64,000 nucleotides of DNA, taken from the NCBI GenBank assembly GCA_021792255.1, contig JAJYUZ010000001.1, positions 352,001-416,000 on the forward strand. The letters run 5' to 3'. The translations under genes and the position numbers were made by a program. The stretch comes from Thermoplasmata archaeon (GTDB lineage: Archaea; Thermoplasmatota; Thermoplasmata; Thermoplasmatales; GCA-001856825). Positions 12,637 to 29,755 of the stretch are shown here, piece after piece (position 1 is the stretch's first letter; each line of letters starts with the position of its first letter). The notes beneath the pieces are model-generated. The model had not been told where the DNA came from, made no database searches, and was given only the letters and a program-made list of their open reading frames with translations.

Positions 12637-12663
12637 TGCGATGCTGTATATCCCAGAACAATG

Positions 12664-13737
12664 TCAAGTCCGTACGAGCGGATTCTTCGCATAATGGATT
12701 GTGTCTATTGTGATTGCACCGAAGATCAAGATTAGCCCAAGGAGAAATATTGTGACTGCCGTTGGGTAGTACTGACCGTGAGCCATGGTCGTGATGAGAA
12801 ACAGTCCTATCCCAGGATAATCGAACACGTACTCCATCATGACTATGTTGCTGAGTAGAAAGGCTACCATGATGGTCGCAGAAGCCATCACAGGCATTAC
12901 AGCGTTGGGCCTGACGTGCTTTATTTCGATTTGTCTCTCTGGTACGCCGCGACTTCTCGCGCTCCTCACATATTCCGTGCCCATGTTGTCGGTGTAACCG
13001 GCTTCCAAGAGGGAAGTGACGATCGCGGTAATACCAATTACTAACGTTGTGACTGGAAGTACGAGGTGCATAAATGCATTGGCTGCAAGGGTATAATCGC
13101 CGTGTATAAGAGAATCGAACAGGAGCATGTGCGTAGGGCTGGATATCAGCACTCCATTACTCTCCAACCATGCTGGTTTTGGTACTCCTGACGGAAGTGC
13201 GATCGGATTAAACGCGCCAGTAATAGGAAAGACCGCAAGCGGGTTTCCGCTTATCACTCCCTTTCCCAACAGAACCTGGAGAAGCAGACCTACCACGTAA
13301 GCGGGAGTTAGGTAGCCTACGATGACTGCTGACCTTCCGAACTTTGCGAGTCTGTAAGTATGATGTGTGCCGAGGTACCTTCCCAACGGGAACGAGATTA
13401 TCAATGCAATCGGAGCTGCGATGATCACTACTTCAAGAGTAGAAAAGAGATAAATGTCTATAAGCATCGTAAGTGGGCCGCTGTAAGTAGCTTCGGTTCC
13501 TGCTGTGAGATAGCCCCAGTGTCCAATCAAGATATCTACTACGAATATTCCGAAAGCAGTTAGATAAGAAGTAATTGAGTCCGAAAAGGCTGGAAAACCT
13601 GACGAAATAGGACTACCATTTCCTATAAACGAAAACACTACAAATATGAAATAGAGGATGATCAAGATTGTCGGTGGAACCGATGCAAGTCTTTTGAGAA
13701 AGTACGACCACATGCTCATCTTAGACTGTACGACCAA
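12664..13737 (-). CDS. DppB/OppB-like peptide ABC permease
   Basis: YFLKRL, HLVLPVTTL, YVRSARSRGV and EYVFDYPGIG. Convergent with dppC. Confidence 0.88.
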   Translation of the reverse strand: MVVQSKMSMWSYFLKRLASVPPTILIILYFIFVVFSFIGNGSPISSGFPAFSDSITSYLTAFGIFVVDILIGHWGYLTAGTEATYSGPLTMLIDIYLFSTLEVVIIAAPIALIISFPLGRYLGTHHTYRLAKFGRSAVIVGYLTPAYVVGLLLQVLLGKGVISGNPLAVFPITGAFNPIALPSGVPKPAWLESNGVLISSPTHMLLFDSLIHGDYTLAANAFMHLVLPVTTLVIGITAIVTSLLEAGYTDNMGTEYVRSARSRGVPERQIEIKHVRPNAVMPVMASATIMVAFLLSNIVMMEYVFDYPGIGLFLITTMAHGQYYPTAVTIFLLGLILIFGAITIDTIHYAKNPLVRT

Positions 13738-13804: not shown

Positions 13805-14419
13805 TCAGGCCGTCATTGTCAAGATTTCATCGTGGACTAATGCGCTTGGATTCGAAATAGCGATGTGATAGACGTCCATAGCGAACGCGAACTGCCCCGA
13901 GTATCCTGCCACGATAAGCACCATCGAACCAGCACCAGAATTGTTACCAAAAGTACCACCCAATACGATGGCAGTGTACCGGAAATTATTAAATGATTCG
14001 TTCGTCACGGCAACGGAGAACCCTACTCCTTGCTGGTAACCCTGCAGATCTATCATTGCATTTTCGTAGATCTGCGCTACGAACGAAGATGCAGAGGACT
14101 GCGATAAGAATTCGAATGAACCCATTATGAGTTCGCCGTAACCTGATGACCTAACGAAGGATGCAGCTATTGCTTTGATGGGTTTCTCCGAAGACTGACT
14201 GGAAAAGATACTGCTCGTTGCGGGTATCTCGTTTAACCCTACTCCAGATGTATTGTTGACTTGTGAATCGCTGACTATCCCGATGTGGAGAGTAGATAAA
14301 GGATGTAGTGAACCGTTATGACTTTCGATAATTTCAAAGGGAACGAATATTAAAACAGCAACTACTATCACGACTGCGACTCCGGTCACTACGGCACGGA
14401 TTTGTCCGTCAGCATTCAT
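13805..14419 (-). CDS. Membrane-anchored extracellular hypothetical protein
   Basis: Single N-terminal TM helix followed by a Ser/Gly-rich domain. Upstream of dppB. Confidence 0.6.
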   Translation of the reverse strand: MNADGQIRAVVTGVAVVIVVAVLIFVPFEIIESHNGSLHPLSTLHIGIVSDSQVNNTSGVGLNEIPATSSIFSSQSSEKPIKAIAASFVRSSGYGELIMGSFEFLSQSSASSFVAQIYENAMIDLQGYQQGVGFSVAVTNESFNNFRYTAIVLGGTFGNNSGAGSMVLIVAGYSGQFAFAMDVYHIAISNPSALVHDEILTMTA

Positions 14420-14800
14420 AGGTTTATGAAATTAACAAAGAGTAAAAAGATTTCGCAGAGCTTGTTCGCTGGACGAATTCTTGCCATGTTCCAATTTTGC
14501 CTGTAATCCATTAAGATCTAACAAGCAAGTCTGAGGCCCATAATTGTAAGAAATCCATCTAGAGAAATCTAGAGGATTCAGATAGGCACCCTACCCCGAA
14601 TTAGAGTCCACTAAAGAGTAACAAGATAGCATTTAATTAGTCTCAGTTTACGGTCAGGTTGAAAGAAAGGAGAATTACCAAACGATTGGCACAAAGAATA
14701 GGCATCTATACTCACGAAAAACTGGGGTATTGTTGACCGCCGCGGTACTTGGATAAAGTCCTTCGAAATTTACTCAACCTTTGAAACGAGAAGTATTTTT

Positions 14801-15763
14801 TCATCGGCTATGTGATATCACTATAGTATCTCCCCTCAACGCATTTTCAAACTCGGTCTCGAAGATAATGTGCCCTGGATCGTTTCCCGTCCTCTTGATG
14901 ATCACTGGCTCGATTTCCCTAAACCCATCTGACAATCTCTTCTTGATTTTGACATCTTCCCCCTTTTCGAATTCACAGTTTATTCTCAGAAGATCTACGT
15001 CCGAAGGAATCACAATTTGAATTGGCCTGTTCGGAAAATTATATCTATAATTCAAGAACAAGTATCTCTCTTCTGATTTACGCATCGGCCTGTTAAGTGT
15101 AATAGAAATACCTGTTCTATCTGACCCGGAATACAAAACGTTTTCCTCATGTAGTGTGATTTTCTTAGTTTCGTCGAATGCAGATAAGTTTATCTGATTA
15201 AGCGAGTTCAAATCTCCCATAGGTAGAGAAATATTATATCCTGCAATTATGCCTAGACCGAAATTCTTAATGTGAACGAACATTGTAACAAATGTCTCAT
15301 CATGCGTGAAGTCAAATCCGATTGACATACTTGTCGTCTTAATTTCTTGTCCCGATGGACTCCCTGTTTTCTTACCATACAGTACAGTTCCATTCACTGT
15401 CCTTTTGCTCATCAAGTCAAGTTTAAGTAATTTTTTGATATTCCTATAGACGGTAGCTGTTACAACAGGTCTTCCGTATGAATTTTCAAGTAGCGACTTG
15501 ATTTCACCAAATCTCAATTCTTTTTCGCGCAACCGTAAGGAGACAATCTCTTCTAGGGCGTTAAATAATGATCCCTTTGGGGCTTGAGTAATAGAGCTTC
15601 GACTAACTCCATCGCCAGGTTGTCTACAGTAGTGCACTATTCCATTTGCGTGGACGAATTTCAAATAGTGGTATTTTTTTCCTTTAGAGCTAGACGTATA
15701 GTTGATCTTTCTCGCTTGACCACCACAAGCTTGACAGACTTCTAGCACCGCTTTCCTTCCCAT
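14801..15763 (-). CDS. Putative regulator B1: Zn-ribbon + winged HTH + beta-sandwich
   Basis: CQAC...KGKKYHY..VHANGIVHY, Fur-like TATVYRNIKKL and a beta-rich C-terminus. Paralogue of 26487-27419. Confidence 0.75.
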   Translation of the reverse strand: MGRKAVLEVCQACGGQARKINYTSSSKGKKYHYLKFVHANGIVHYCRQPGDGVSRSSITQAPKGSLFNALEEIVSLRLREKELRFGEIKSLLENSYGRPVVTATVYRNIKKLLKLDLMSKRTVNGTVLYGKKTGSPSGQEIKTTSMSIGFDFTHDETFVTMFVHIKNFGLGIIAGYNISLPMGDLNSLNQINLSAFDETKKITLHEENVLYSGSDRTGISITLNRPMRKSEERYLFLNYRYNFPNRPIQIVIPSDVDLLRINCEFEKGEDVKIKKRLSDGFREIEPVIIKRTGNDPGHIIFETEFENALRGDTIVISHSR

Positions 15764-15784
15764 TTAATTGTCAATTACCTTCTT

Positions 15785-15794
15785 CAATATTCAA
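15785..15794 (-). promoter_or_regulatory. Conserved promoter-like box TTGAATATTG upstream of regulator B1
   Basis: Identical 10-mer lies 21 nt before the ATG in both module copies. Confidence 0.55.
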
Positions 15795-15824
15795 ATTTCC
15801 GTTTTCCTAGACTGAAAGTGATTC

Positions 15825-16781
15825 TCAGGAGTGCTTCCATTTGAATTGCAGGACAGAAAATGGCTCGACGTCGGAGATTCTGATACCACTGATGTGTTTC
15901 CACATGGGAGAAGAAGCTTCCATACTGTTATTCGATAACTCTCTGGTTTCATTCCTAGATGCCAGGGTCAAGGATGCACTGAGCTTAATGTCATTATCCC
16001 CAGAAATTGAAAATTGAAAATTGTCCATCCTGGTCGCAGCGGAAAAAACGAATGACATTTTTGGTTCCGGCCACTTATATTCTACCTTAATGTCTCTTAG
16101 TTCTCCGGGGAGGAGCGGGATAGGCATTTTCAAAAGTACTCTCTTGTCCGTGGGAGAATCTTCAATCAGCAGTACTTTAAAATCTTTGGAATTGGAAGGA
16201 TCTGTAGCGTGCAATTCTATATCTTCGAACCTCATATCCACATCTCCTACGTATCTGAATGGAACGTAATAAAGTGGCCAAGAGTGGTCATTTTTGATTA
16301 TGTAAGTGAATACGTGTTTCTTGAATGTATAGTCTTTATCAATGTCCACCAGTCCGATTTTCAGTGAGTTGATTACGAAACTCAAACGATCTTTTGATAC
16401 CGTGTTTATGTAATAGAGACTCCTTCCTCTCTTATGCTTTTCAATCATTCCAATTTTTGCTAGTCTTTCCAAACTGACCTTGATTGAACCAAACCCGATA
16501 TCGGAGAAGTTTTTGACAAGTAGTTTTTTGATATCCTTGTTCCTAAACGTGCCAAGTTTGAAATCTTGAGAGTTAATAGTCTCTATAAGGACCCTCTCAA
16601 GTTCTCCTTTCTTTATGTACTTCTGACCTTTTTGATCCTGGTTTGAATAATGAATGGCTCCTTCGTGATGATAAATGAAGTAATCATAACGCTTGCCATA
16701 TTTGTTCATCACCCATTTACGGGTTACCCTCGCTCGCTCACCGCATACAGGGCAAACCTCCTGACGCTCGCCAAAGGTCAT
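15825..16781 (-). CDS. Putative regulator A1: Zn-ribbon + winged HTH + beta-sandwich
   Basis: CPVC...NKYGKRYDY..YHHEGAIHY and wHTH SLERLAKIGMIEKHKRGR. Paralogue of 25471-26427. ATG 16781 aligns with the paralogue start. Confidence 0.78.
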   Translation of the reverse strand: MTFGERQEVCPVCGERARVTRKWVMNKYGKRYDYFIYHHEGAIHYSNQDQKGQKYIKKGELERVLIETINSQDFKLGTFRNKDIKKLLVKNFSDIGFGSIKVSLERLAKIGMIEKHKRGRSLYYINTVSKDRLSFVINSLKIGLVDIDKDYTFKKHVFTYIIKNDHSWPLYYVPFRYVGDVDMRFEDIELHATDPSNSKDFKVLLIEDSPTDKRVLLKMPIPLLPGELRDIKVEYKWPEPKMSFVFSAATRMDNFQFSISGDNDIKLSASLTLASRNETRELSNNSMEASSPMWKHISGIRISDVEPFSVLQFKWKHS

Positions 16782-16807
16782 CGACAAACAATAGTATATA
16801 GTATAAA

Positions 16808-16819
16808 AAAGTTAGAAAA
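16808..16819 (-). promoter_or_regulatory. Operator half-site TTTTCTAACTTT abutting the TATA-like box of regulator A1
   Basis: Exact copy of one arm of the 16986-17010 palindrome. The core ends 28 nt before the ATG, as in copy 2. Confidence 0.6.
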
Positions 16820-16841
16820 ACTAATCCATTGAAAAGCTGCT

Positions 16842-16937
16842 TTACGCTCCGCCCACGTAGGCTCCACCTAGTGGTCTTACGATTGCGAAGTACGTACTAA
16901 CCACAAGAGCGAGCACCGCTACAATTAGCTCAAACAT
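16842..16937 (-). CDS. Short hydrophobic peptide P1 (MFELIVAVLALVVSTYFAIVRPLGGAYVGGA)
   Basis: SD-like GGGGGAT before the ATG. Ungapped similarity to the peptide at 25312-25413 in the same position of the second module. Confidence 0.7.
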   Translation of the reverse strand: MFELIVAVLALVVSTYFAIVRPLGGAYVGGA

Positions 16938-16985
16938 TTGAATCCCCCATTGTTCTATAATATACTGGTATTTCGATACTACTGC

Positions 16986-17010
16986 AAAGTTAGAAAAGTT
17001 TTCTAACTTT
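16986..17010. promoter_or_regulatory. Perfect palindromic operator AAAGTTAGAAAA-G-TTTTCTAACTTT
   Basis: 12-bp inverted repeat with a 1-nt spacer, 48 nt upstream of the P1 start. Confidence 0.7.
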
Positions 17011-17055
17011 ATAATACTATTGAATAGTCTCATTAAGTTATACAGTTGAAGAGTG

Positions 17056-17240
17056 ATGGAATCTAAAGCGTTAGGTACTGTCAGGGTGATGCGAATTAGC
17101 TCTGTACGGCACCGATCAGAATCGCGAGACGGACAGATTGAGTCAAAAGACGGAGAAATAAGACTGCGGCAGAGTAGCGGGCGCCCTTCGAGGAACCAAT
17201 CCCCCTCCTCGTGTGTGGAGCTAGTTCTCACCGACAGCCT
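17056..17240 (+). other. Divergent structured element (candidate ncRNA or leader), overlapping a weak 139-aa ORF
   Basis: Long-range stem: 17078-17102 pairs with 17218-17237. Preceded by the conserved TATTGAATA box. Confidence 0.35.
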
Positions 17241-17464
17241 TTATTCTCCTAGCTTTCTAGACGTAACAGACGAATTAGAACTTCTAGAGATCGTACGCTC
17301 GGAAGGTATGTACACTCTCGGTTTAGCCGATAAAAAGTGGATAAAATCTAAACCTAACTCTGCGGTCGCTTATAATTCAATGCGTAGAGCAAAGTTCATT
17401 TTAAATCTTGACCCCTCAATTTGGTTCAGTTACGGGACCTTTTCGATTGGAACTGATGTGGAGG

Positions 17465-17890
17465 ATGCCTGAATTGTCTCTAGGCGAGCTGGATTTTGAG
17501 AATGGTAGTGTCCTTAGAGAACAGAAAGATATCAAAGAGAGAGTAAAGGATGACACAAAGCTTCTGGTCTCTTTGCATGATATTGAATTTTCAAAAGAGA
17601 AAGAGGGATATTTAGAGGTAGCTACCGACATTTTCTTCTCGAGACTCCTTCATCTCCTTTATGTACGCAACGTAGAAGCTGGAAAGGATTTCGAAACAGC
17701 GAAAGAGAAAGCAAAGACAGTCCTCATCTCTCAGTTGGAGAAAAAGAAACAAACCCTCCTGACAAAGTCAGTATTTCAGAATGACAGCGCTAAAGATTAT
17801 GGCATGAGAGGGAAGAGATTGTTTCTGCTGAACAAAGCCATCTCGATACTTGAGGCTTACAACGGTGAACCGCCATATTTCAATTACTGA
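17465..17890 (+). CDS. Hypothetical protein (about 141 aa, helical and charged)
   Basis: GGAGG directly before ATG 17465 and coding-like composition. Confidence 0.6.
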   Translation: MPELSLGELDFENGSVLREQKDIKERVKDDTKLLVSLHDIEFSKEKEGYLEVATDIFFSRLLHLLYVRNVEAGKDFETAKEKAKTVLISQLEKKKQTLLTKSVFQNDSAKDYGMRGKRLFLLNKAISILEAYNGEPPYFNY

Positions 17891-18105
17891 GTATGTTTTA
17901 CTTAAGCTAGGGAAAAACCGATTTTATACTTAGTTCTCACCTTGACAGTGGCAGAGAAACAGGCTTTTTATTTTTCCAATCCTTAAGCTCTGTCCCTACT
18001 ATATACTTTGGAAGATGCCATTTCGAAAAATACTAACCTTTCCTAGATAATCAGCACGGGACTTCCAGTTGATTCCCGCGCTTCTCTTTGATTTCGATTT
18101 ATCAG

Positions 18106-18873
18106 TCATCGGGATTTAAGTTGCGTCTCTATCTTACTTATTTTCCTCAAAACTTCTGTAACAAGGGCTTTCGAGCTTTCGAGTTTTTCAGACTTAGCGG
18201 ATACTTCCACCTCGATTTCGGATTCTTCTCCTCCCTTTAACATCGGGTGCGATTTAATGTAAATCTTGCCGTTATATTCCTCCATCAATTCTGTAATATA
18301 TGGAGCGAGTGAGGCTTCATAGATCCCAGTCACCAGCACTGAATCTTCGAAATAAAAGCTATTACTCAGTTTAATCCTATTTTCTATGTGTTTCAACATT
18401 GACCTCATTTCGCTTGGCACTCCAGGAAGGATGAAAATTTTAGTAGATTGCAGATGGTATTCGATCCCGGGAGCAGTCCCTTCAACGTTCCTTATAACGG
18501 TCGATCCTTTTGGTACCAGTGCCATTTTTTCCCTCTCCTTAGTCATCTCAACCCCCCGCTTTTCGATCCTGGCTTTAATTGTTTTATATATCTCTGCGTC
18601 TACGACAATTGGAATTTTGAATTCATCAGCAAATGAGGATACTGTTATGTCGTCAAACGTTGGCCCTAGTCCCCCAGAAGAAACAATCACGTCACAGAGC
18701 CCAACAAGAGATCTGAAAGCATTCCCTATTTCCTCTTTGATATCGGGCACCGATATGCCTCTATGGACGTCATAACCTGCGAAGTAAAGCATTCTACCGA
18801 TCTCGGCTGCGTTGGTATTCACCGTCTTTCCTTTGAGAATTTCATTCCCTATCGTTATGACGCAAGCCTTCAT
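18106..18873 (-). CDS. CinA N-terminal-like molybdopterin-binding (COG1058) protein
   Basis: IGNEILKGKTVNTN, SGGLGPTFDDIT, GTAPG and LPGVPSEM. Confidence 0.9.
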   Translation of the reverse strand: MKACVITIGNEILKGKTVNTNAAEIGRMLYFAGYDVHRGISVPDIKEEIGNAFRSLVGLCDVIVSSGGLGPTFDDITVSSFADEFKIPIVVDAEIYKTIKARIEKRGVEMTKEREKMALVPKGSTVIRNVEGTAPGIEYHLQSTKIFILPGVPSEMRSMLKHIENRIKLSNSFYFEDSVLVTGIYEASLAPYITELMEEYNGKIYIKSHPMLKGGEESEIEVEVSAKSEKLESSKALVTEVLRKISKIETQLKSR

Positions 18874-19010
18874 ATTGAGGTTAGTGTAGACGCAGTCTTA
18901 TTGGTTTCTATGTTTGAACTTTTTATTCCTAATTCAAGACTAAATATTATTTTGGTGCGCTAAAATGTTTCAGTGATAAAACTTTTATTAGCAAAATAAC
19001 TCACCGGTAA

Positions 19011-20756
19011 ATGGAATACAAATGGACGGTCTTGGTAAACACTACTTTGGGCGGGCTAATGGGATCAATCAACATGACCATTGTCCTCATTTCACTACCT
19101 ACGATTTTTAGGGGTCTTAACATTGACCCTACTGCCCCGGGAGAGTTCATAATGTTGCTCTGGGTAATGTTGGGTTACAGCATTATTCTTGCCACTCTGC
19201 TGGTGACATTTGGGAGGCTTTCCGACGTTTATGGTAGGACGCGGCTTTACACTTTGGGTTTTATCATCTTTACAGTTGGGTCTATCTTAAGCTCCATAAT
19301 TCCGGATGGATCTGGTAACAGAGGAGCAGAGATGCTCATTGGATTTAGGATGGTGCAGGCAATTGGTGGAGGGCTACTGATGGTAAACAGTACTGCACTC
19401 ATCACCGATGCTTTTGACTCCAGTGAAAGGGGACGAGCACTCGGAATTAATCAGATTTCTTTCATATCAGGATCGTTGATCGGACTAATAGCTGGCGGTC
19501 TGCTTGCGTCAAGTAACTGGCACTTGGTATTCATAGTGAACATTCCCTTTGCTGTTGCTGGTTCTCTTTGGTCCGTATTCAAGCTGAAACAGACTACGAA
19601 GAGAGTAAAGGTTCCAATGGACATAGCTGGAAACATTGCACTTGGAGGGGGGTTAGTCTTGATAAGCCTTGGATTCACTTACGCACTCGTACCATATGGT
19701 ACCTCCTCCATGGGTTGGGGAAGCCCTTGGGTCTTGATCTCTTTTGCAGTGGGCTCAGTCTTGTTGATACTATTCGCGTTCATCGAACTGAGGGTAAAGT
19801 ATCCATTATTCAATTTGCACCTTTTTAAAATAAGAGCCTTCAACTACGGCAACCTTGCAAACTTCATGTCTGCCCTCGGAAGAGGGGCTATTATGTTCCT
19901 CGTAGTCATATGGCTACAGGGCATTTATCTTCCACTGCACGGATTCTCTTATTCATCGACACCATTCTGGGCTGGCATATACATGCTGCCAATGATGGTC
20001 GGTTTCATTGCTCTTGGCCCAATCGGAGGTATGCTGACTGACAAGTATGGTGCACGTATTTTCGCTACAGTGGGTATGGTAATAATTGCATTATCCTTGT
20101 ATCTGCTGACCTTACTTCCATACAATTTCAACGTATGGCAATTCGAAATAATTCTACTAATGAACGGTATCGGTAGCGGATTATTTGCAGCACCCAATAC
20201 AACCGCTGTCATGAACTCTTTACCCCCCGAAAGCAGGGGAGCTGGTAGCGGAATGAGAACGACATTCAATAACATCGGTCAGACTATCAGTATGGCAATA
20301 TTCTTTTCAATAGCAATCACTGTATTTTCACAGAAACTTCCGTCTTCACTTTTGCAGACATCCCAGTCGATCGGACTCCCGACACAGATCGCAGTAGCGA
20401 TCTCCCAAATTCCGCCTTCTGGCGCCCTGTTCGCGGCCTTCCTTGGAATAAATCCTGCCGCCAGTTTTCCTTCTTCAATGCTGAGTCTGGTTTCACCTAC
20501 CGCGTTAAAGTCATTGATGTCCCTTACTTTCTTTCCTAACGCAATCGGACCGTCCTTCATGATAGGTCTCAAGTACTCACTGTACGTCGCAATCGTGATA
20601 ACCCTTATTGGAGCAGTACTCTCTGCACTCAGTGGAGGGAGGTATGTACACGGAGAAGGGTACACAGACGGAAAGAGATCAAGGAGTTCTGAAGATAAAA
20701 AAGCCAGCGATGTCCCTACCACCGAACCGAGTACTGGACACGGGGGCCAAAAATGA
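19011..20756 (+). CDS. MFS transporter (DHA2/EmrB-like, 14 TM)
   Basis: GRLSDVYGR motif, ERGRALGIN and many TM segments. Confidence 0.9.
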   Translation: MEYKWTVLVNTTLGGLMGSINMTIVLISLPTIFRGLNIDPTAPGEFIMLLWVMLGYSIILATLLVTFGRLSDVYGRTRLYTLGFIIFTVGSILSSIIPDGSGNRGAEMLIGFRMVQAIGGGLLMVNSTALITDAFDSSERGRALGINQISFISGSLIGLIAGGLLASSNWHLVFIVNIPFAVAGSLWSVFKLKQTTKRVKVPMDIAGNIALGGGLVLISLGFTYALVPYGTSSMGWGSPWVLISFAVGSVLLILFAFIELRVKYPLFNLHLFKIRAFNYGNLANFMSALGRGAIMFLVVIWLQGIYLPLHGFSYSSTPFWAGIYMLPMMVGFIALGPIGGMLTDKYGARIFATVGMVIIALSLYLLTLLPYNFNVWQFEIILLMNGIGSGLFAAPNTTAVMNSLPPESRGAGSGMRTTFNNIGQTISMAIFFSIAITVFSQKLPSSLLQTSQSIGLPTQIAVAISQIPPSGALFAAFLGINPAASFPSSMLSLVSPTALKSLMSLTFFPNAIGPSFMIGLKYSLYVAIVITLIGAVLSALSGGRYVHGEGYTDGKRSRSSEDKKASDVPTTEPSTGHGGQK

Positions 20757-21187
20757 AAAATGAATATGCTATGCTATTGGACCAATTGACCTCGATAAGG
20801 AAACTGAGAAAAAAAATACTCAGTGAAATTAATGCCAACCTGAAAGACTTCAATTCCAGTGATTTCCAGGTTTTACACAGGATATGCAGGGGAATAAAAG
20901 AACCCATGATGAGCGACCTTTCAAAATCGACCGGATTGTCTCACGCTTTGATAACTTCATCTGTTGATAGCCTGGAAGAACTGGATCTTGTAAAGAGGAA
21001 GAGAGGACCTGACAGAAGAAGCTACGTCATAAAACTGACAAGTAAGGGGGTCGAGAAGTGTCAAGAAATGGAAGAACTGAAGAACAGGAGTATAGATTCA
21101 TTGTTCAGGAGCATGTCTAAGGAGGATCTTTCAGAGCTGAAAGAGACCCTTAAAAAATTGAACGATCTCATGGGAAAATATGCATGA
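20753..21187 (+). CDS. MarR family regulator
   Basis: LEELDLVKRKRGPDRRSYVIKLTSKG. Confidence 0.9.
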   Translation: MKNEYAMLLDQLTSIRKLRKKILSEINANLKDFNSSDFQVLHRICRGIKEPMMSDLSKSTGLSHALITSSVDSLEELDLVKRKRGPDRRSYVIKLTSKGVEKCQEMEELKNRSIDSLFRSMSKEDLSELKETLKKLNDLMGKYA

Positions 21188-21449
21188 CAAATGACACTGA
21201 ATGATCTACCAGTGAGATCACCCGTTTCGACCGATCCATAAGCTGAATCTTTTACGTTCTTTTCCTGGATTAGAGTTTCCCTATCAGCAAGGTTCCTTTT
21301 AGGAATCAGAAACCAAGCCCTTGCTATTGGTAACAGACTTCTTCAAATCAAAAAGAGCCCTTATCTCCAACGGAGAAAGATTTTACTACCTTCAAATCTG
21401 TAAACATTTTTTTTCTTGTCTTCTGTAATAAGTTGGCATCATAGAAGCA

Positions 21450-22712
21450 TTAGATTATCAGCGTTTCCTGATCCACTTTTCTCTTTGAGAGTCCGAGGTC
21501 AGCTACATTTATTTCTAAACCACCATAAAGTCTTGTCGACTGTTTTCCTGAGAATAGTGCAGCTGCGACCATTCCTGCTGCGTCGGCTTTCATTATCCCG
21601 CTTCCACTACTCCCATTTACTACTGAAAGGTTCATGTGTCTTTCGAAAACGTAGGTGCCATCCATGTTATTCATGGAATAGAAGCCCGCCCAGCTCGACC
21701 GTATGCGGGAATTAGAAAAAGCCGGAACGTACTCTCTAAGGACTGTGTAAAGATTGTTTGAGTAATAATCCTCATCAGCAGTCGGATTCTCTTCTAGTGA
21801 AAATCCTCTCCCGATTCCCTCAACGTAGGATACCCAGAACATCTTTGATTTTGGATCTGGCCTCAGGTCAATTGTGGGACTAGGGAGAATTGTAAACGGA
21901 AAGAGGTCCTCCTCCCCCGTCACTTTTCTTGTCATCATTTTAGAGATTTCCTCGCTCTGGACCTGAAACACCTGAACCTTCTTTGGTTGAGTGAATGCGT
22001 CAATTCCGAGTGGCCTCAACAAATCGTTTGTCCATACGTCAGTCGCAAGCAAAAACTGGTCCGCAAAAACATCTCCTTTGCTTGTTTCGACCGACTCTAT
22101 TACCTTATCTTGCCAGATGAACGGTTCTCCAGGAAAATTTAGCTTGTTGCGAGGTGCTATGCTCAGTCTTTCCACGTTGGTGTTGAATCTAAACTCTACA
22201 CCCATATTCTCCAATTTTGTGACATAAAACGATGCAAGTAGGTCGGGTTCCATGATGCCACAATTTTCACCTACTAAACCTCCTTCGATATTCCTCAGGT
22301 TCATAATACTGGCAGCATCCGGGTCAGGATTCGTCCTTATTCCAAGTTCTGAAATTTCTTCCCTGCTTATTATTTTAGATTTGACCTTATTAAGAAGTTT
22401 CCGGACTGCCGGAGAGTTCAGATTGTCCTTATCCATCAGGAACAGGTAGCCGTTGAAGTGCATTCCCAAGTTGAACCCTTTCCTTTGAACGTCCTTGTAA
22501 AAAGAGATGGAAGAGGACGCTAACTTGTAATTTGTCTCCGAAGTAAAGACATCTCGAAAAGCGGCAGCACTTTTGGCCGTGTTTCCTTGAGCATACGTAC
22601 TCCCCTTGTCTAAAACGCAAATATTCAGATCTGGATTTTCTGACTTGATGTGGTAAGCCGAAGAGAGACCTGAAATACCGGCTCCAACGATTAATAGATC
22701 GTACTTTTGCAT
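21450..22712 (-). CDS. FAD-dependent oxidoreductase (DAO / proline dehydrogenase beta-like)
   Basis: IVGAGISG, TAKSAA, WAGFY and GSSGSGIMKA. Confidence 0.85.
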   Translation of the reverse strand: MQKYDLLIVGAGISGLSSAYHIKSENPDLNICVLDKGSTYAQGNTAKSAAAFRDVFTSETNYKLASSSISFYKDVQRKGFNLGMHFNGYLFLMDKDNLNSPAVRKLLNKVKSKIISREEISELGIRTNPDPDAASIMNLRNIEGGLVGENCGIMEPDLLASFYVTKLENMGVEFRFNTNVERLSIAPRNKLNFPGEPFIWQDKVIESVETSKGDVFADQFLLATDVWTNDLLRPLGIDAFTQPKKVQVFQVQSEEISKMMTRKVTGEEDLFPFTILPSPTIDLRPDPKSKMFWVSYVEGIGRGFSLEENPTADEDYYSNNLYTVLREYVPAFSNSRIRSSWAGFYSMNNMDGTYVFERHMNLSVVNGSSGSGIMKADAAGMVAAALFSGKQSTRLYGGLEINVADLGLSKRKVDQETLII

Positions 22713-22783
22713 TCGCCTGAAGGATAGCGAACCGTTATTTAATATATCATTTCAAATCCCACTAGACAGATAAAGATCGCTAC

Positions 22784-23689
22784 CTAGATCAAATTCATCT
22801 TCTTCAGTAGGTAGCGTGCGGAGACGATATCCTCTAACCCAATCCCCATGGTCTTGAATATCGTTTTCTTGAAACCCCTGTACTTCTCCGTTTCTCCGAT
22901 TACATTCTTAAATTCCGTCGGTCTCCCCCCGCCGTTCACAAAATCTACGATCTCAGAAGACTCCTTGAGTGCCTGCTCCAGGTGTTCAACCACTACGAGA
23001 TCAGCGCCATCTATTACTTTTCTTGAAACCTCTTTTCTGGAGAGAACATTGGAGCCTGAAATGTTAAGATGATATTCATCTAAAAAGGATAGATCATTGA
23101 TTATCGGTTCTCGAGAAGAAGTAATGCTTGTGATGACATCTGCATTTTCCAGACCGGATCTTAAGTCATCATAATACGTTATTTCCTTCCCAAACTTTCT
23201 GTTCATTCTCTCTGCAAAATCTGTGCCGTGTGCTGGCGTGCGGGAGTACACCCTTATTTCGCGAGGATCTGAGACCGCGAGTAGTCCTTCAAGTTGAGTT
23301 TCTGCTTGAAATCCAGATCCTATCAAGGTAAAAACAGAGCACTTACCGTGCAAAGCAGAGGTTGCAAGTGCTGTCACTGCGCCTGTTCTTACTTGCCCCA
23401 ACTTGTTGGCTTCTACTACAGCAATAAGCTCACTCGAAATTGTATCAAACAGCAGAACCACGAACTTGGCTCCTTCTTTTGTTGCTACGTACGTTTTGAG
23501 GCCTGTTATGTTGTACCTATTCATGAAAGCAGGCATTGTGCTGAGGACTGACATACTCGAAAAGGTTCTGATGCGAGAATCAGCTCCTGCTTCACCTCTG
23601 AAGTATTCTCCAAAGGCATCGCGCATTGCTTCAATGGCCATTTTCATGTCAAAATTCTCTACAACATCTTCCTCTGTTATCACGTACAT
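22784..23689 (-). CDS. Ornithine cyclodeaminase / mu-crystallin family protein
   Basis: LGQVRTGA, IGSGFQAETQL and FKTMGIGLEDI. Confidence 0.88.
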   Translation of the reverse strand: MYVITEEDVVENFDMKMAIEAMRDAFGEYFRGEAGADSRIRTFSSMSVLSTMPAFMNRYNITGLKTYVATKEGAKFVVLLFDTISSELIAVVEANKLGQVRTGAVTALATSALHGKCSVFTLIGSGFQAETQLEGLLAVSDPREIRVYSRTPAHGTDFAERMNRKFGKEITYYDDLRSGLENADVITSITSSREPIINDLSFLDEYHLNISGSNVLSRKEVSRKVIDGADLVVVEHLEQALKESSEIVDFVNGGGRPTEFKNVIGETEKYRGFKKTIFKTMGIGLEDIVSARYLLKKMNLI

Positions 23690-23807
23690 GTGAAACTTCA
23701 ACCTGAGGGAAGCTAAATACTCTTTTAAAGAAATTTATCGCTAGATCAAAATTCTAAGGAAATAGGCGCATTACAAATTTACTTTCTTGAGAATACTTTA
23801 CCGAAAA

Positions 23808-24362
23808 TCAGGTCAGCGAGGCCACAATTGAACCAGTCGTACCTGAATAATTAATTACTACTTTAAAGTCCGATAATACTATTGCTTTTCCGGTCGAATG
23901 GAAAACTATGAAAATTATGGCCCCAGATTCTATGGAAGATGCGCCATTAAGTGGGACAGCTCCATTAGCCGTCCACACATCACCGCTGCTCGTAAAAGTG
24001 TTCATGTAAAGTGCTGATCCGTCTGGATTTGTGATTGTCGCATTCTCAATCGTCCAGCCGACCCCTGTTGAGGTCGTGTTCAAAATTTGCAGATGAAAAT
24101 TGGATGGATCCTTAAGAGATGTCGGAGAAGCAAGCGTCAACAGTAGTGTAGTCGAATTTGGTCCAGAAGGTTCTTCCGTCAGGCTTCCCACTAGTGGTCC
24201 AGGCCCGGGAGTATAGTATGAAACCAGCAGATATACAGCAGCAGCTAAAACTACTGTGACTGCCACCATCAGGATAGTTGCTATTACTGGAGATACCGCC
24301 TCGTCTTTTTCAACGTGAAGTGACCAAATCTTCCTGCGAGTTCTCCTAATGACTTCTTTCAT
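23808..24362 (-). CDS. Archaeal type IV pilin-like protein
   Basis: Class III signal KDEA|VSPVIATILMVAVTVVLAAAVY. Confidence 0.88.
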   Translation of the reverse strand: MKEVIRRTRRKIWSLHVEKDEAVSPVIATILMVAVTVVLAAAVYLLVSYYTPGPGPLVGSLTEEPSGPNSTTLLLTLASPTSLKDPSNFHLQILNTTSTGVGWTIENATITNPDGSALYMNTFTSSGDVWTANGAVPLNGASSIESGAIIFIVFHSTGKAIVLSDFKVVINYSGTTGSIVASLT

Positions 24363-25086
24363 CTCTTCCCCCTGGTGAACCAAGAGCGAAAAGAAATGCC
24401 TAAACCCAATATATATTTTGAGGTTCTCTCTATTCCTGAATTAGTTGAATTTATGGATTAAATCGTGCTGCCAAATACTCTGCCGGCTATGATAAACATA
24501 TCTTGACCTTTCCATATTGATATCTATTTTTGATCTTCCTTATAAAAATGACTTTCTGTTTTCTAGTGGTGGTAAGAAAGCGCACCAAACTCGTAAGAGG
24601 GAAGGAAATCAAATACTTTTTATATATCTTGAGGAGCCCGTAGAATCCTCTATCGTATAAAGGCCTTGATCTCATTAAATTCTAATAGCGAACTATGCTT
24701 TTCCTCACGATTTACTTGACTCCGAGATTGACATCAACTTTTTCTTGCTCATGCTAAAACTGATTTTGAAAACTATGTCAGATCACCCGAGGTATACAAA
24801 GATATTTTACTAATAGTTCTCAAACCTTTGCCTGCTTTCGGAAGAATGGAATTGACTATAAAATTAGTGTAATCAACATTTCTCAGACATGTTTTCTTTT
24901 TTATATTTTTAAAATGACGAAAATGTAACTTAGATCATTTCTCTTTTAAATCGGACATTTTTTGTTTTAAATAGTTTCAGTCCTCCGGTCATTATTTTCA
25001 TTATGGAAATTCAGCTAGACCGGATCGTGTTGAAGAGCGCTTGACTCTTATTCTCGGTAAATCCTCACAACTTCCACTCAAGAAAA

Positions 25087-25115
25087 AAGAGGAAGTCCTA
25101 CTAGAACTTCCTCTT
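25087..25115 (-). terminator. Strong hairpin followed by a T-tract on the minus strand (possible terminator or operator)
   Basis: Minus strand reads AAGAGGAAGTTCT-AGT-AGGACTTCCTCTT then TTTTC. Confidence 0.4.
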
Positions 25116-25237
25116 AACTGGCCCCTCCTCGTGATTGATGATACTGCAGTGTGGGAAGCGTCACGTTGGTTACACGAATCCACTTCGTGCATTATTCAAT
25201 ATTTCATAAATTTGAGGTCCCTATTTAATACCACCAG

Positions 25238-25262
25238 AAAGTTAGAAATGTTAGCTAACTTC
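25238..25262. promoter_or_regulatory. Degenerate copy of the operator: AAAGTTAGAAAT-G-TTAGCTAACTTC
   Basis: 21 of 25 positions identical to 16986-17010 on the + strand. Lies 49 nt upstream of the P2 start. Confidence 0.68.
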
Positions 25263-25311
25263 CTGTTAGTATAAAAATACGAGAATAAGTTGATTTTTTG
25301 AGGGATACGAA

Positions 25312-25413
25312 ATGTTCGTAATATTTGCCTTCGTGATTGGCCTGGCTATAACCGTGTACTACACTTTAATTAACCCACAGGGCAATGGCGGAATAGCGGC
25401 GGGTGGCGGATAG
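25312..25413 (+). CDS. Short hydrophobic peptide P2 (MFVIFAFVIGLAITVYYTLINPQGNGGIAAGGG); absent from the ORF track
   Basis: SD-like GAGGGAT. Homologous to P1 in position and sequence. Confidence 0.7.
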   Translation: MFVIFAFVIGLAITVYYTLINPQGNGGIAAGGG

Positions 25414-25432
25414 AAATAATTCTATCTTTCAA

Positions 25433-25442
25433 TTTTCTAACT
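25433..25442 (+). promoter_or_regulatory. Operator half-site TTTTCTAACT before the TATA-like box of regulator A2
   Basis: Ends 28 nt upstream of ATG 25471, the same spacing as copy 1. Confidence 0.55.
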
Positions 25443-25470
25443 ATTAATATAAGCTGAATCTTACTGAGAA

Positions 25471-26427
25471 ATGTCAAATTTAAAAGAAGAAGGAGTTTGT
25501 CCATACTGTAAGAAAAAATCTTACATTACAAGAAAATGGGTTCTAAACAAGTACAAGAAAAGATACAATTATGCTATATATCATCACGACGGAACCTTGC
25601 ATTACTTGAATGAATCTAAAGATAATTCAAAAACCTTCAGGAAGGGAGAAATTGAGAAATTATTGATTGAAACGATAAACTCTGAAAGATTCAAAGATGG
25701 TTTGTTTCTAACTGAAGACATAAAGAAGTTACTTGAGAAGGAATATCCTGAAATTCAATCAGATACTATCAGAGCAAACCTCTATCAATTGACGAAAATA
25801 GGAATGCTTGAAACTATGAAAAAGGGGAGACAGGTCTTCTTCCTTAACGTGGTTTTCAGGGAAAGACTGGGCTATATTTTCGATTCAGTCAAGATATTAC
25901 TCGGAGATATTGAGGGCGATACTTTCTTCAGAAATCACGTTGCCCTTTATCAAATCAGAAATGACAAAACGTGGCCACTTTACTTCCTTCCTTATCGAGT
26001 TTTCGGAGATGCTGACGCCGAGTTTAGAACGATGCAATTTCGGGCGTTTGATATATCAAATAACGAGCGATTGAGAGTACTCTTATTAGAAGACAATCCC
26101 AGGGAAAAGAGAGTACTGCTTCGATTGAGTAATCCTCTGTTCCCAAACGAAATATTGAAAGTCAGATTTGAGTACGATTGGCAGGAGCCTAAACAAGCTT
26201 TTGTCTTCACTGCTGCAACTCAATTAAAGAGCTTCGAGATTTATCTCTCTGGCAACAATCAACTTAAGATACAGGCGATTCAGACCGTATCGACCACCAA
26301 TGAAATTAAAGATCTCACCAATGACGTTTCAAAAAGTAGGAACAAAGAATGGGACTTCGTGTATTCGATAAAGTTGAAATCGATCAAACCCTTTTCAGTA
26401 ATACAATTAAAGTGGAAACGCATTTAA
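25471..26427 (+). CDS. Putative regulator A2: Zn-ribbon + wHTH + beta-sandwich
   Basis: CPYC..RKWVLNKYKKRYNYAIYHHDGTLHY, WPLYFLPYR and PFSVIQLKWK are shared with A1. Confidence 0.78.
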   Translation: MSNLKEEGVCPYCKKKSYITRKWVLNKYKKRYNYAIYHHDGTLHYLNESKDNSKTFRKGEIEKLLIETINSERFKDGLFLTEDIKKLLEKEYPEIQSDTIRANLYQLTKIGMLETMKKGRQVFFLNVVFRERLGYIFDSVKILLGDIEGDTFFRNHVALYQIRNDKTWPLYFLPYRVFGDADAEFRTMQFRAFDISNNERLRVLLLEDNPREKRVLLRLSNPLFPNEILKVRFEYDWQEPKQAFVFTAATQLKSFEIYLSGNNQLKIQAIQTVSTTNEIKDLTNDVSKSRNKEWDFVYSIKLKSIKPFSVIQLKWKRI

Positions 26428-26455
26428 AAGGAGTTAGCGTTGCACATTCGCAAAC

Positions 26456-26465
26456 TTGAATATTG
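26456..26465 (+). promoter_or_regulatory. Conserved promoter-like box TTGAATATTG upstream of regulator B2
   Basis: 21 nt before ATG 26487, preceded by a BRE-like CGCAAA. Confidence 0.55.
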
Positions 26466-26486
26466 TTTGCTTTATATCCGCGCTGA

Positions 26487-27419
26487 ATGCCTAGGAAACC
26501 GTTGCAGGCAATGTGTAAAATTTGTGGAGCAAACGCAACACTTGTGCATCACCAGGCCACTGGAGCTAACGGAATAATTTATTTTTATGAGAAGTACGTC
26601 CACCGAAATGGCAAGACTCATTATTTTCGACAAGACAGAAAAGCACAAAGTGAAGAAGCTTCCGTTTCTTTTGAAGACTTGATTGATACGAAGATGAACA
26701 ATGGCAAGTACAGGTTCAAAGAAATCAAACTCCTAATTGAATCTGTCAATCGGAGAAACGTTAGCAACACTATGGTCTACAGGAGTATTGAAAAGGCAAT
26801 ACGGGCCAATTCAATAGAGAAGAATATTGAGGAAGGCATAATCTATTATTCGAAAAGAATCAACCAAGATTCATCAGGACAACTGAAAATAAAGGAAGCG
26901 TTTGTAACTTATGTTCTATCAGACTCTACCGTGAATATGACAATACTGTTACTGTTCGAGAATCTTAGCGGTTTGCTTATGAACAGAATACCAATCACCC
27001 TCCCTACAGGGACTGTAGATTCTCAAAAAGAGCTGCACCTTCAAGTATTCGATCAGATGGGACCAATTCCGGAAAAGAATGTAGAAATGGCATATTCATT
27101 CTCTAGTCAGACCGGAATTGCGATAAACTTTAACAAACCCCTAAAACCGAATGAGTTCAATTTCGTCTTTATGAGCACTCAATTCAAGACAAGAGAGCGA
27201 ATGTTGAAATTTGCTTTGCCACTGTACACCAATTCTCTGAAACTGTACGTCACATTAGATCACGGCAAACCAGTTCACATAATAAAACGCCTGCTCGATG
27301 GAGTCAAGGAGACAAATCCGGATTTGGCCAGAAAGGGGACATTGAATAACGGTCAGACTTACAAGGAAGTGGAGTTCAATAATGCGTCCTGGGGAGAGGC
27401 GATAATAGTCTCTTGGTGA
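26487..27419 (+). CDS. Putative regulator B2: Zn-ribbon + wHTH + beta-sandwich
   Basis: CKIC...VHRNGKTHY, RFKEIKLLIE..TMVYRSI, KRLLDGVKE and EFNNA.GEAIIVS are shared with B1. Confidence 0.75.
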   Translation: MPRKPLQAMCKICGANATLVHHQATGANGIIYFYEKYVHRNGKTHYFRQDRKAQSEEASVSFEDLIDTKMNNGKYRFKEIKLLIESVNRRNVSNTMVYRSIEKAIRANSIEKNIEEGIIYYSKRINQDSSGQLKIKEAFVTYVLSDSTVNMTILLLFENLSGLLMNRIPITLPTGTVDSQKELHLQVFDQMGPIPEKNVEMAYSFSSQTGIAINFNKPLKPNEFNFVFMSTQFKTRERMLKFALPLYTNSLKLYVTLDHGKPVHIIKRLLDGVKETNPDLARKGTLNNGQTYKEVEFNNASWGEAIIVSW

Positions 27420-27673
27420 TATTCAATTTCTAATTTGAGGTAGCTTCCTCTCGAATCTATTTGAGTCAAAAAGAGTAGCGATGGCAAGAAAGTGCAGCTG
27501 ATACCTCGGCAGGGTCAATCATTGTATTTGAACCCCAGATTATTCTCCAATGTCGGTAAGAACTATTTTGAGAACCATTTGAGACAGAAATTGGAGATTT
27601 CAAAAATGTACCAAACAATTAATGTATTAGATTTGGAAGTCGTAATTGTATAAAAAAGAGGAGAAGATGAGAA

Positions 27674-27970
27674 ATGGTAATTGAGTGGACCACCATAATG
27701 GATTTCGTCCTTACGTTCGTGGCAGGATTGCTCTTCGGTCTAGCTATCAAGAAGGGAGTTGTCGCGTTTGTGCTAGCAATAGTAGGCTTCGTGATAGCGG
27801 GATATGTAGGGTTGACGTTTGTTCCCAAGATTTCATTAAGCTACGAGATAAGTAAATTCATTGCTCTTGCACTGGCATACTTCAAGGACGCGCAAATTGG
27901 AACGCTTGCCGTTTCTCTCACAGTTATTCTGTTCCTTATCGGACTTGTCATAGGACTGTGGAAAGGATAA
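27674..27970 (+). CDS. Small membrane protein (FUN14-like)
   Basis: GLLFGLAIKKG..LAIVG..GYVG pattern with three hydrophobic segments. Confidence 0.6.
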   Translation: MVIEWTTIMDFVLTFVAGLLFGLAIKKGVVAFVLAIVGFVIAGYVGLTFVPKISLSYEISKFIALALAYFKDAQIGTLAVSLTVILFLIGLVIGLWKG

Positions 27971-28093
27971 TCTTAAAACGACCTGTAGGTGCAGATTCTT
28001 GACTATTGATTTTTTCTATCTTTCCTATTGAGTCATCGGACCGTTTTATCAGCAGCATCTGAAGAAGCGTAAAGGTTGATAAGGCCGAAATAT

Positions 28094-28669
28094 ATGCTTT
28101 TTAGATTGAGTAAGATAAAGAACGAAGAGGCCGTTTCGGAAGTCGTCGGGACTATCCTTATACTAGCTATAACGGTAGTGCTATTTGCAACAGTATTTGT
28201 CTATGTACAACAAGTTCCACTGGCTACGGCCCCTGAACAAGTCACTATCTACCAAGAGATATCCTACGACGCAAATTCTCACGTCCTCTATGAGAATCTT
28301 TCTGATAAAGGAGGGAGCATTCTTCTTAGAAGCGAGACCTATCTGATCGTACTCGTTAACAATGTAGAATATTCGAGCGTTCTGACTTCACTTCAAGTAA
28401 GCGATCCCTATGGAAATGCTTCAAAATATTTTGAACCGGGCGATTCTATTCTCTGGAACAGTTCTTCCATTGGAGCCAAAGTATCGAATGGCTCAAAAAT
28501 CAACTCCATTTTGTTCTATAAATCCACAAACCAAGTACTGTGGCAATCCGAGAACGACCTGCCGGTACAATATTTGCTGACGGACCTTTTCGCTCTTCAG
28601 GGTTCCCAAGGAACTGGAAACGAGACAATATTCCACCATTTACTTTCTGCAAAACACTGGCAGATGTGA
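28094..28669 (+). CDS. Archaeal type IV pilin-like protein
   Basis: KNEEA|VSEVVGTILILAITVVLFATVF, FEPGD and NQVLW. Confidence 0.82.
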   Translation: MLFRLSKIKNEEAVSEVVGTILILAITVVLFATVFVYVQQVPLATAPEQVTIYQEISYDANSHVLYENLSDKGGSILLRSETYLIVLVNNVEYSSVLTSLQVSDPYGNASKYFEPGDSILWNSSSIGAKVSNGSKINSILFYKSTNQVLWQSENDLPVQYLLTDLFALQGSQGTGNETIFHHLLSAKHWQM

Positions 28670-28706
28670 CAGCTTTTTTGGAGGAGTCGATGTGACTCCG
28701 TACTAT

Positions 28707-28725
28707 TTCCTGACAATATTTTGTT
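28707..28725 (+). repeat. 19-bp direct repeat, copy 1 (TTCCTGACAATATTTTGTT)
   Basis: Exact match at 29767-29785. Confidence 0.8.
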
Positions 28726-28884
28726 CATCCAGACACGTTCCTGGACGTTCAAACTCTTATCCTCGTTTTGAAGTTTTCTAACTTTCTGTTTTGCTCTAGA
28801 ATGTCGGATGGAAGCCTATTAACAACATTTCTTTATCACAGCCCCTCTGACAAACATCTATATAATTCGAAGAGATTATAATTC

Positions 28885-29463: not shown

Positions 29464-29479
29464 GGGAGGGGAACCAAGG

Positions 29480-29755
29480 ATGAGAAAGAATAGAAACGAG
29501 GCTCAGATAATCTTCGAACTTCTTGAAAGCATAAACAGCGGTAACACACAAATCTCATCCCTGTTGAGAAAGGTGAACATCCCCTTCAACAAATATCAAG
29601 ATCTTATTCAACAGTTGAAAGAGAGGGATATGATCAAAACCACACAAGAGGAGAACAAGAATTCCCTGGAATTGACCCCCAAAGGTAAAGAGTTTCTGGA
29701 GCAGTACAGGAAATTCAGCAAGCTGATGGTTAGTAGTTATGGTCTGAACCTTTAG
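29480..29755 (+). CDS. Winged HTH regulator (HTH_45/COG3432-like)
   Basis: RNEAQIIFELL, VNIPF and ELTPKGKEFL. Confidence 0.8.
   Translation: MRKNRNEAQIIFELLESINSGNTQISSLLRKVNIPFNKYQDLIQQLKERDMIKTTQEENKNSLELTPKGKEFLEQYRKFSKLMVSSYGLNL

Follow-up and report, generated by a model that had tools for sequence, protein, structure and literature searches.

A 64,000-nucleotide (nt) stretch of DNA from a Thermoplasmata archaeon (contig JAJYUZ010000001.1 of assembly GCA_021792255.1, positions 352,001 to 416,000), hereafter called the window, contains two copies of a gene cassette. In each copy, a palindromic operator, a small open reading frame (ORF) encoding a hydrophobic peptide, and the genes of two regulators, A and B, follow one another in the same order, and the two copies lie in opposite orientation (Table 1). 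The cassette is real and is conserved in one family of acid-mine archaea. We tentatively interpret it as a lineage-specific, autoregulated cassette in which the membrane peptide would act inside the cell as a partner of A and B, with its tail in the cytoplasm; a role of the peptide as a signal is unproven. The window is part of a 1.59-Mb genome that is 93.6% complete, and the same DNA was found in mine-drainage, tailings, and sediment metagenomes (11 DNA runs from 3 studies, with no RNA runs listed).

Conservation of the cassette and of its peptide gene

The spacing of the non-coding elements is conserved between the two copies. The palindrome lies 48 nt from the ATG of the peptide gene in copy 1 and 49 nt in copy 2, the half-site TTCTAAC lies 29 nt from the start of A in both copies, and TTGAATATTG lies 21 nt from the start of B in both copies. 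A TATTnAATA box (TATTCAATA and TATTTAATA, respectively) is found 7 nt past the palindrome in both. An earlier note on this DNA had described this duplicated order and these spacings, and direct reading of the sequence of both copies agrees with it, save that the distance from the half-site to A had been given as 28 nt; its equality in the two copies stands. In copy 2, the right half of the palindrome is AGCTAAC in place of TTCTAAC. The start codon listed for A1 is a TTG located 6 nt upstream of the ATG used here.

The unit described in the earlier note is also conserved beyond the window. With A1 as the query, the cassette was found in 16 of the 17 other genomes of the genus and in 19 of the 24 genomes of the family, and a single weak match (expectation value, E, 8e-5) was obtained in 35 genomes from six other families of the order. 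B is always located downstream of A, with a gap of 4-66 nt. Two orthologous module types were identified, one for each copy of the window, and in several genomes they lie approximately 10 kb apart in opposite orientation, as is the case here. A third type is present in some genomes, and a fourth, divergent type in two.

The peptide ORF was evaluated in the 34 modules with enough upstream sequence, leaving out L003-L007 (duplicates of the window's own loci), L027 (the weak match from another family), and L022 and L061 (contig ends). A general lack of the small ORF beside homologues of A and B would have spoken against the earlier note, but this is not what is observed: the ORF is present in 31 of the 34 modules, including modules whose A is just 22-28% identical. 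It was found in 12/12 modules of type 1, 9/11 of type 2, 6/6 of type 3, 2/2 of the fourth type, and 2/3 of those from other genera, and its range thus extends to two other genera. It is missing from the type 2 modules L031 and L032, found in two related genomes, and from L024, where only a 12-codon remnant is observed. In L031 and L032, unrelated sequence stands in place of the peptide gene; A2, B2, and the divergent RNA hairpin are retained, as is the operator, with one mismatch.

The peptide ORFs comprise 28-37 codons, lie 41-76 nt 5' of A, and encode a transmembrane helix and a glycine-rich tail. Nearly all have a strong Shine-Dalgarno (SD) sequence, which is GGGGGA, GAGGGA, or GGAGGTG. The raw ratio of non-synonymous to synonymous changes (pN/pS) is 0.43 in frame for the type 1 peptides (45 pairs), against 0.89 and 1.66 in the other frames, and 0.42 in frame for the type 2 peptides (36 pairs), against 1.00 and 1.52. 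Based on this near-universal presence, the strong SD, and the contrast between 0.42-0.43 in frame and 0.9-1.7 out of frame, the small ORF is a genuine gene. When all ORFs of the genome were filtered for a hydrophobic stretch and at least 4 glycines in the last 10 residues, exactly two were recovered, namely peptides 1 and 2.

With regard to the peptides themselves, the different types share M-[FIV]-[ED] at the N-terminus, a Y-[FY] pair towards the end of the helix, and a G-G-x-x-x-G core in the tail, and a proline often follows the helix. The tails differ according to the module type, with three patterns, GGAFMGSG-like (GGxFxGxG), GGIAQGGG-like (GGxxxGGG), and SLGN or SFGN(G), which supports the interpretation of the earlier note in this respect. 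None of the 31 peptides exhibits a lysine or an arginine at residues 2-5, and 17 of them exhibit one after the hydrophobic core (counted by eye). As positive residues favour the cytoplasmic side of the membrane (the positive-inside rule), this distribution favours a cytoplasmic location of the tail.

Table 1 Features of the two cassette copies, in window coordinates
Feature	Coordinates	Strand	Description
Operator, copy 1	16986-17010		perfect 25-bp palindrome AAAGTTAGAAAACTTTTCTAACTTT; putative centre of a bidirectional promoter
TATA-like box, copy 1	16969-16978		peptide side
TATA-like box, copy 1	17018-17026		divergent side
Peptide 1	16842..16937	minus	31 amino acids (aa); hydrophobic helix and tail GGAYVGGA; SD GGGGGA 5'
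A1 promoter region	16788..16817	minus	half-site TTCTAAC (16811-16817) with a T/A-rich TATA-like box immediately next to it
Regulator A1	15825..16781	minus	318 aa counted from the ATG; zinc ribbon, winged helix, beta-sandwich domain
TTGAATATTG box before the B1 ATG	15785..15794	minus	
Regulator B1	14801..15763	minus	320 aa; zinc ribbon (CxxC..H..H), putative winged helix, C-terminal domain
D1	17056..17472	plus	138-codon frame on the divergent side of the copy 1 palindrome
D2	17456..17890	plus	144 aa; conserved protein of no known family, motif FFSxLLxLLYV
Operator, copy 2	25238..25262		imperfect palindrome, right half degenerate
TATA-like boxes, copy 2	25222-25230, 25270-25279		flanking the operator
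Peptide 2	25312..25413	plus	33 aa; hydrophobic helix and tail GGIAAGGG; SD GAGGGA
Half-site before A2	25435..25441	plus	TTCTAAC, 5' of the A2 ATG
Regulator A2	25471..26427	plus	318 aa; 44-45% identity with A1
TTGAATATTG box before the B2 ATG	26456..26465	plus	
Regulator B2	26487..27419	plus	310 aa; 27-28% identity with B1
Divergent arm, copy 2	25088..25128	minus	invariant GGAGGGGCCA (25119-25128), GC-rich hairpin (25088-25114), T-tract

Operator, regulators, and divergent arm

The operator pattern is not a chance occurrence. GTTAGAA-N3-7-TTCTAAC matched a single time in the window and never in any of 100 shuffles, and the 5 sites of TTTCTAACTTT in the 1.59-Mb genome are all located inside the 12-kb stretch at 16818-28775 of the window. 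An exact GTTAGAA-N4-6-TTCTAAC is present 5' of the peptide gene in 18 of the 28 loci displayed. Two loci of the same genus, L015 and L017, exhibit a symmetric variant, GTTCGAA/TTCGAAC (GAGTTCGAAA-G-TTTCGAACTC), and the remaining loci have a short spacer (2), one degenerate half (4, including copy 2 of the window), or no operator (2). Such a symmetric change in both halves is the signature predicted for a dimeric binding protein. Most of the 28 loci also have TTCTAAC 5' of A, and in L015 and L017 it is unchanged at this position although both palindrome halves have changed.

A TAT-rich box is observed 10 nt from the half-site on either side of the palindrome, which probably makes the palindrome the centre of a bidirectional promoter. 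Archaeal activators usually bind upstream of the TATA box, and the palindrome is upstream of both TATA-like boxes. In the type 3 modules, the promoter-proximal half-site is retained at a similar distance from the TATA-like box. As the half-site and box of A and the box of B lie 21-29 nt from starts that are devoid of an SD, the mRNAs of A and B may well be leaderless, and TTGAATATTG is probably the TATA element of the B transcript. Most of the 27 loci displayed for the A-B spacer have kept AAAnTTGAATAT there.

The fifth copy of TTTCTAACTTT (28773-28783, plus strand) is located between a pilin-like gene and the gene of a 192-aa membrane protein, after which comes an HTH_45 winged-helix gene (29438-29755). 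As 4/4 other genomes have no TTCTAAC in the 3.1 kb that follow their type 2 modules, this site was rejected as an additional operator and is treated as a chance or strain-specific occurrence. In a Rfam scan of positions 14000-29500 at E <= 1, the sole match was a chance hit of a miRNA model on the palindrome.

The regulators A and B are distant paralogs, which the earlier note had overlooked: A1 and B1 are 29% identical in the first 154 columns of their alignment (E 1e-8). The source genome contains only four members of this family, which are A1, B1, A2, and B2. The CxxC...H...H motif does not vary among 37 A sequences and 23 B sequences, and corresponds to C10, C13, H38, and H44 in B. No family of Pfam, NCBIfam, or PADLOC was above its threshold for any of the four proteins. 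Penicillinase_R (PF03965) scored 18.1 bits with A1 for a cut-off of 22.6 and had no match in A2, B1, and B2, and TIGR02698 scored 14.3 bits for a cut-off of 121.95. Membership of the BlaI family was rejected on these scores. Weak sequence matches of A1 in the PDB were BlaI (1p6r, E 0.0054) and the zinc beta-ribbon region of the A118 integrase (E 0.0057). The best PADLOC matches were AbiEi (E 6e-4), over the winged helix-turn-helix (wHTH) of A2 only, and PtuB (E 0.022) for A1, with none for B1, B2, D1, and D2, so that membership of a known defence system was also discarded. In public records, all the parts are labelled as hypothetical proteins, with the exception of one BlaI-type label on the homologue P0028.

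The AlphaFold2 model of A1 has a mean predicted local distance difference test score (pLDDT) of 81.7, with values of 87-96 across most of residues 141-318. It predicts a beta-ribbon (approximately residues 7-47), a winged helix (approximately 60-126), and a confident beta-sandwich (135-318). With this model and the weak wHTH matches, A and B look like DNA-binding proteins with a sensor-like C-terminal domain, which supports this part of the interpretation in the earlier note. The top Foldseek matches of the A1 model were chains of M1 aminopeptidases/LTA4H and ribophorin I that contain the beta-sandwich (E ~1e-6, query TM-score, TMq, 0.31-0.41), which we take as a resemblance of the modelled fold only. 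In Atlas, the C-terminal domain of A1 matched only unnamed bacterial clusters (0.90-0.91), which are a lead at most.

An exhaustive profile search of 1.84 billion proteins yielded 133 representatives of the A family. The C-terminal domain is also found fused to class III adenylate/guanylate cyclases in Nitrosopumilaceae and Nitrososphaeraceae, to a caspase domain, and to a plain winged helix, and therefore behaves as a portable sensor or adaptor domain. The motif of this A/B domain is EYDWEEPE; the fusions were seen in P0057-P0072 (loci L036-L053), with a single metagenomic protein carrying the caspase. A convergent ORF often adjoins the cyclase genes; it is an ORF of approximately 268 aa, the N-terminus of which looks like a winged helix (a guess by eye).

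The divergent arm of the palindrome, comprising D1, D2, and an RNA hairpin, was also overlooked in the earlier note. D1 is open in all 12 type 1 loci, with 137-145 codons, and evolves almost neutrally (pN/pS 0.40-1.01, 6 pairs). It holds islands in which all codon positions are conserved, one of them being TCCCCCTCCTC, near 17200-17210. Two further nucleotide islands inside D1, conserved in the 12 type 1 loci, GTTTAGCCGATAAA and AAAATCTAAAC (17160-17330, plus strand), form an inverted repeat, GTTTAG/CTAAAC, which resembles the operator half-site plus one T. D2 overlaps or abuts the end of D1 in the type 1 loci, where it encodes about 144 aa, and it is also found at some type 2 loci and in another genus. 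Its pN/pS of 0.18-0.47 identifies it as a real protein. The AlphaFold2 model of D2 shows a small beta-sheet and a helical hairpin (pLDDT 76), for which no PDB sequence match better than E 0.016, no Foldseek match at E <= 0.001, and no usable Atlas match was obtained.

In the type 2 loci, a GC-rich hairpin of 12 bp and then a T-tract come after GGAGGGGCCA, and RNAalifold gave 14 pairs, 8 of which show compensatory changes, in 10 loci. This island is read as a putative small structured RNA or leader, and the arm of copy 2 as a candidate small RNA of ~110 nt that would start near 25192. The island is retained even where D2 is lost, as in copy 2, where a 63-codon remnant ORF is left at 25001-25192. 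At the type 3 locus L025, in another genome of the genus, the divergent ORF exceeds 226 aa and has a CxxxCxxC motif, which looks radical-SAM-like by eye. A general association with radical-SAM proteins was discarded, as the 90-residue previews of ORFs in the upstream flanks of three other type 3 loci contained no ORF of at least 90 aa with this motif; the divergent gene of these three loci encodes a protein of 376-528 aa that has a membrane anchor at its N-terminus.

The neighbourhood of the two copies contains other genes. A 98-aa membrane protein encoded after B2 (27674-27970, plus strand) is 72-77% identical across 10 other type 2 loci, which is above the conservation of A or B. Copy 2 is flanked by two genes resembling archaeal type IV pilins (Pilin_N), at 23808-24383 (minus) and 28076-28669 (plus), the first of which is syntenic in 10 loci. 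Two BPD_transp_1 permease genes of ATP-binding cassette (ABC) transporters are present in opposite orientations at 11620-13737, 1-3 kb from copy 1.

Possible roles of the membrane peptide

In the mechanism that we favour, A and B, with their zinc ribbon, winged helix, and beta-sandwich, would bind the GTTAGAA/TTCTAAC half-sites as homo- or heterodimers. The A/B heteromer of the earlier note would be one such form, and is purely conjectural. From its position, typical of archaeal activators, the full palindrome would control both arms, that is, the peptide gene on one side and the RNA, D1, and D2 on the other, and the single half-site abutting the TATA-like box of A would provide autoregulation of A. 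The peptide would be a single-pass membrane mini-protein with its glycine-rich tail most likely in the cytoplasm. As a cognate partner or co-sensor of the sensor domains of A and B, it could tether them, release them, or be clipped at the membrane, and each paralogous module would retain its own type of tail. The near-universal linkage of the peptide to A and B, the constraint over the whole peptide, the type-specific tails, and the charge pattern favour such an intracellular partner. The likeness to membrane sequestration circuits, such as PspBC-PspA-PspF, Mlc-PtsG, and the anti-sigma factors, exists only if this interpretation is right, as a small membrane protein would then control a cytoplasmic transcription factor. 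There is no homology with these circuits, and the partner is far smaller here and is encoded upstream of two paralogous regulators that it would contact.

Several observations weigh against this interpretation. In the L031 and L032 genomes, A2 and B2 are intact and under purifying selection (pN/pS 0.18 and 0.25), so a peptide encoded in cis is not strictly needed; both genomes still carry the type 1 peptide. The contact between the peptide and A/B is one that we infer, and none of the results shows it. The prediction of a complex of A, B, and the peptide, each with an alignment, scored 0.04 for a mark of 0.32, which gives no verdict and was not used either way. The proposed model assigns no role to D1, D2, or the RNA hairpin. 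All module types share one DNA half-site, which leaves no insulation between them at the DNA level. The charges that predict the topology are found on just 17 of the 31 peptides, the tails of type 2 being mostly uncharged. Finally, none of the 18 Nitrososphaeria cyclase loci with the same C-terminal domain has such a peptide nearby.

An unlikely alternative is that the peptide is the output of the cassette, as a membrane-active effector of the type I toxin or holin kind. A and B would then control its transcription and the divergent RNA its translation, in a toxin-antitoxin-like, stress, or defence module. The peptide, with 28-37 aa and one hydrophobic helix, is a small hydrophobic membrane peptide of the type I toxin size class. 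As in tisB/istR-1, zor/orz, and shoB/ohsC, it faces a divergent, non-overlapping transcript, here with a conserved RNA structure, the promoter-proximal island of which survives the loss of D2. In type 1, the UCCCCC of a stem-loop with a covarying 4-bp stem complements the SD GGGGGA, and the flanks differ in step in two lineages (judged by eye). In addition, the circuit looks closed, as the operator motif does not occur outside this locus, and caspases and cyclases, to which the C-terminal domain is also fused, are effector types of conflict systems. However, as the genes are divergent, the complementarity of UCCCCC to the SD is a direct repeat in the DNA, and the homologous island of the type 2 loci occupies the other strand with respect to the peptide. 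Pairing with the peptide mRNA is not consistent between module types, and no consistent target of the type 2 island was found in the peptide-A-B transcript of 9 loci. A search for duplexes between the peptide leader and the divergent transcript was run without shuffle controls, and its long, loopy duplexes are not interpretable. Furthermore, no PADLOC family was above noise, the glycine-rich, uncharged tail differs from the charged tails of known type I toxins, and known type I systems do not come with two transcription factors dedicated to each peptide.

The earlier note had proposed that the cassette is a peptide-signalling system, which we consider quite improbable. In such a quorum-sensing-like system, the peptide would be exported and cleaved, and its glycine-rich tail would be re-imported through a peptide ABC transporter and bound by A and B, forming an autoinduction loop in which the modules would be pheromone specificity groups. 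The layout is closest to the Rgg/SHP class of the RRNPP systems of Firmicutes (Rgg/SHP, ComR/ComS, PlcR/PapR, and PrgX-type). In these systems too, a short hydrophobic peptide gene, here found in 31 of the 34 modules, adjoins the gene of a cytoplasmic DNA-binding regulator, an operator lies upstream of the peptide promoter, and several paralogous pairs with their own peptide tails coexist in a genome. The activator-like position of the operator makes positive feedback possible, the tails differ between module types, and many peptides have a helix-breaking proline, or an N-P pair, ahead of the tail. Streptococcal SHP pheromones are likewise short, hydrophobic, and GG-ending, and the two permease genes lie near copy 1.

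In contrast, RRNPP receptors combine a helix-turn-helix with tetratricopeptide repeats (TPRs), and no TPR or RRNPP family was found at E <= 1 in Pfam and NCBIfam for A1, A2, B1, and B2. These proteins comprise a zinc ribbon, a wHTH, and a beta-sandwich, the C-terminal domain being all-beta in the A1 model, and they show no homology to RRNPP receptors. As the defining TPR receptor is absent, the cassette is not a member of this class, and it further differs from it by its two paralogous regulators per peptide and its archaeal host. The N-terminus of the peptide is acidic or neutral and not basic as in RRNPP propeptides: the basic N-terminus of exported propeptides is seen in 0/31 peptides, and lysines or arginines are found on the C-terminal side in 17/31 (by eye). 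The N-terminal MFE/MIE and the Y-F/Y in the helix are conserved across types, which is unexpected for a disposable export segment. A2 and B2 persist without their own peptide, and the conserved neighbourhood, as far as the short flanks show it, includes no gene for processing or export. The signalling proposal is partly supported: what stands of it is the conserved module, with its ORF, its regulators, and its tail types; the TPR domain and the basic N-terminus are missing, and A2 and B2 stay under purifying selection in two genomes that lack their peptide. The use of the same half-site by all module types also weighs against the proposal. It is quite improbable that this is the first peptide-based cell-cell signalling of archaea, independent of RRNPP, with a zinc-ribbon/wHTH/beta-sandwich receptor pair, a membrane-processed mini-propeptide, and 2-4 specificity groups per genome on one operator.

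It is highly improbable that the small ORF is a cis-acting upstream ORF, the translation of which, rather than its product, would tune A: it lies in the same orientation as A and a short distance upstream of it in all modules having it, but the spacer provides A with a half-site and a TATA-like box of its own, the amino-acid features of the peptide are conserved under the in-frame constraint reported above, and in a peptide of 28-37 aa the helix would still be in the ribosome tunnel at termination, which makes a MifM-like insertion monitor implausible and led us to discard it on peptide length.

Novelty and significance

The wHTH of A weakly resembles in sequence that of the BlaI/MecI/CopY winged-helix repressors. 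A and B differ from these repressors by an additional N-terminal zinc ribbon and a 180-aa C-terminal domain, and no BlaR1-like sensor protease was seen beside the module. None of the five parts of the cassette belongs to a curated family, and we rate the cassette as categorically new in its composition. In the portion of the literature accessible to us, no comparable archaeal peptide-regulator module was found, and, to our knowledge, small-protein partners of archaeal transcription factors are almost unknown. The wiring is unusually legible, with an operator, three promoters, and a conserved membrane peptide of 30 aa, which makes the cassette directly testable.

If the peptide is a ligand or a signal, the cassette would open the study of peptide signalling in archaea. 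If it is a toxin, the cassette would represent a new kind of membrane effector, controlled by both proteins and RNA. In addition, as the C-terminal domain of the regulators is shared with cyclases of ammonia-oxidising archaea, it may be an uncharacterised sensor domain of wider interest.

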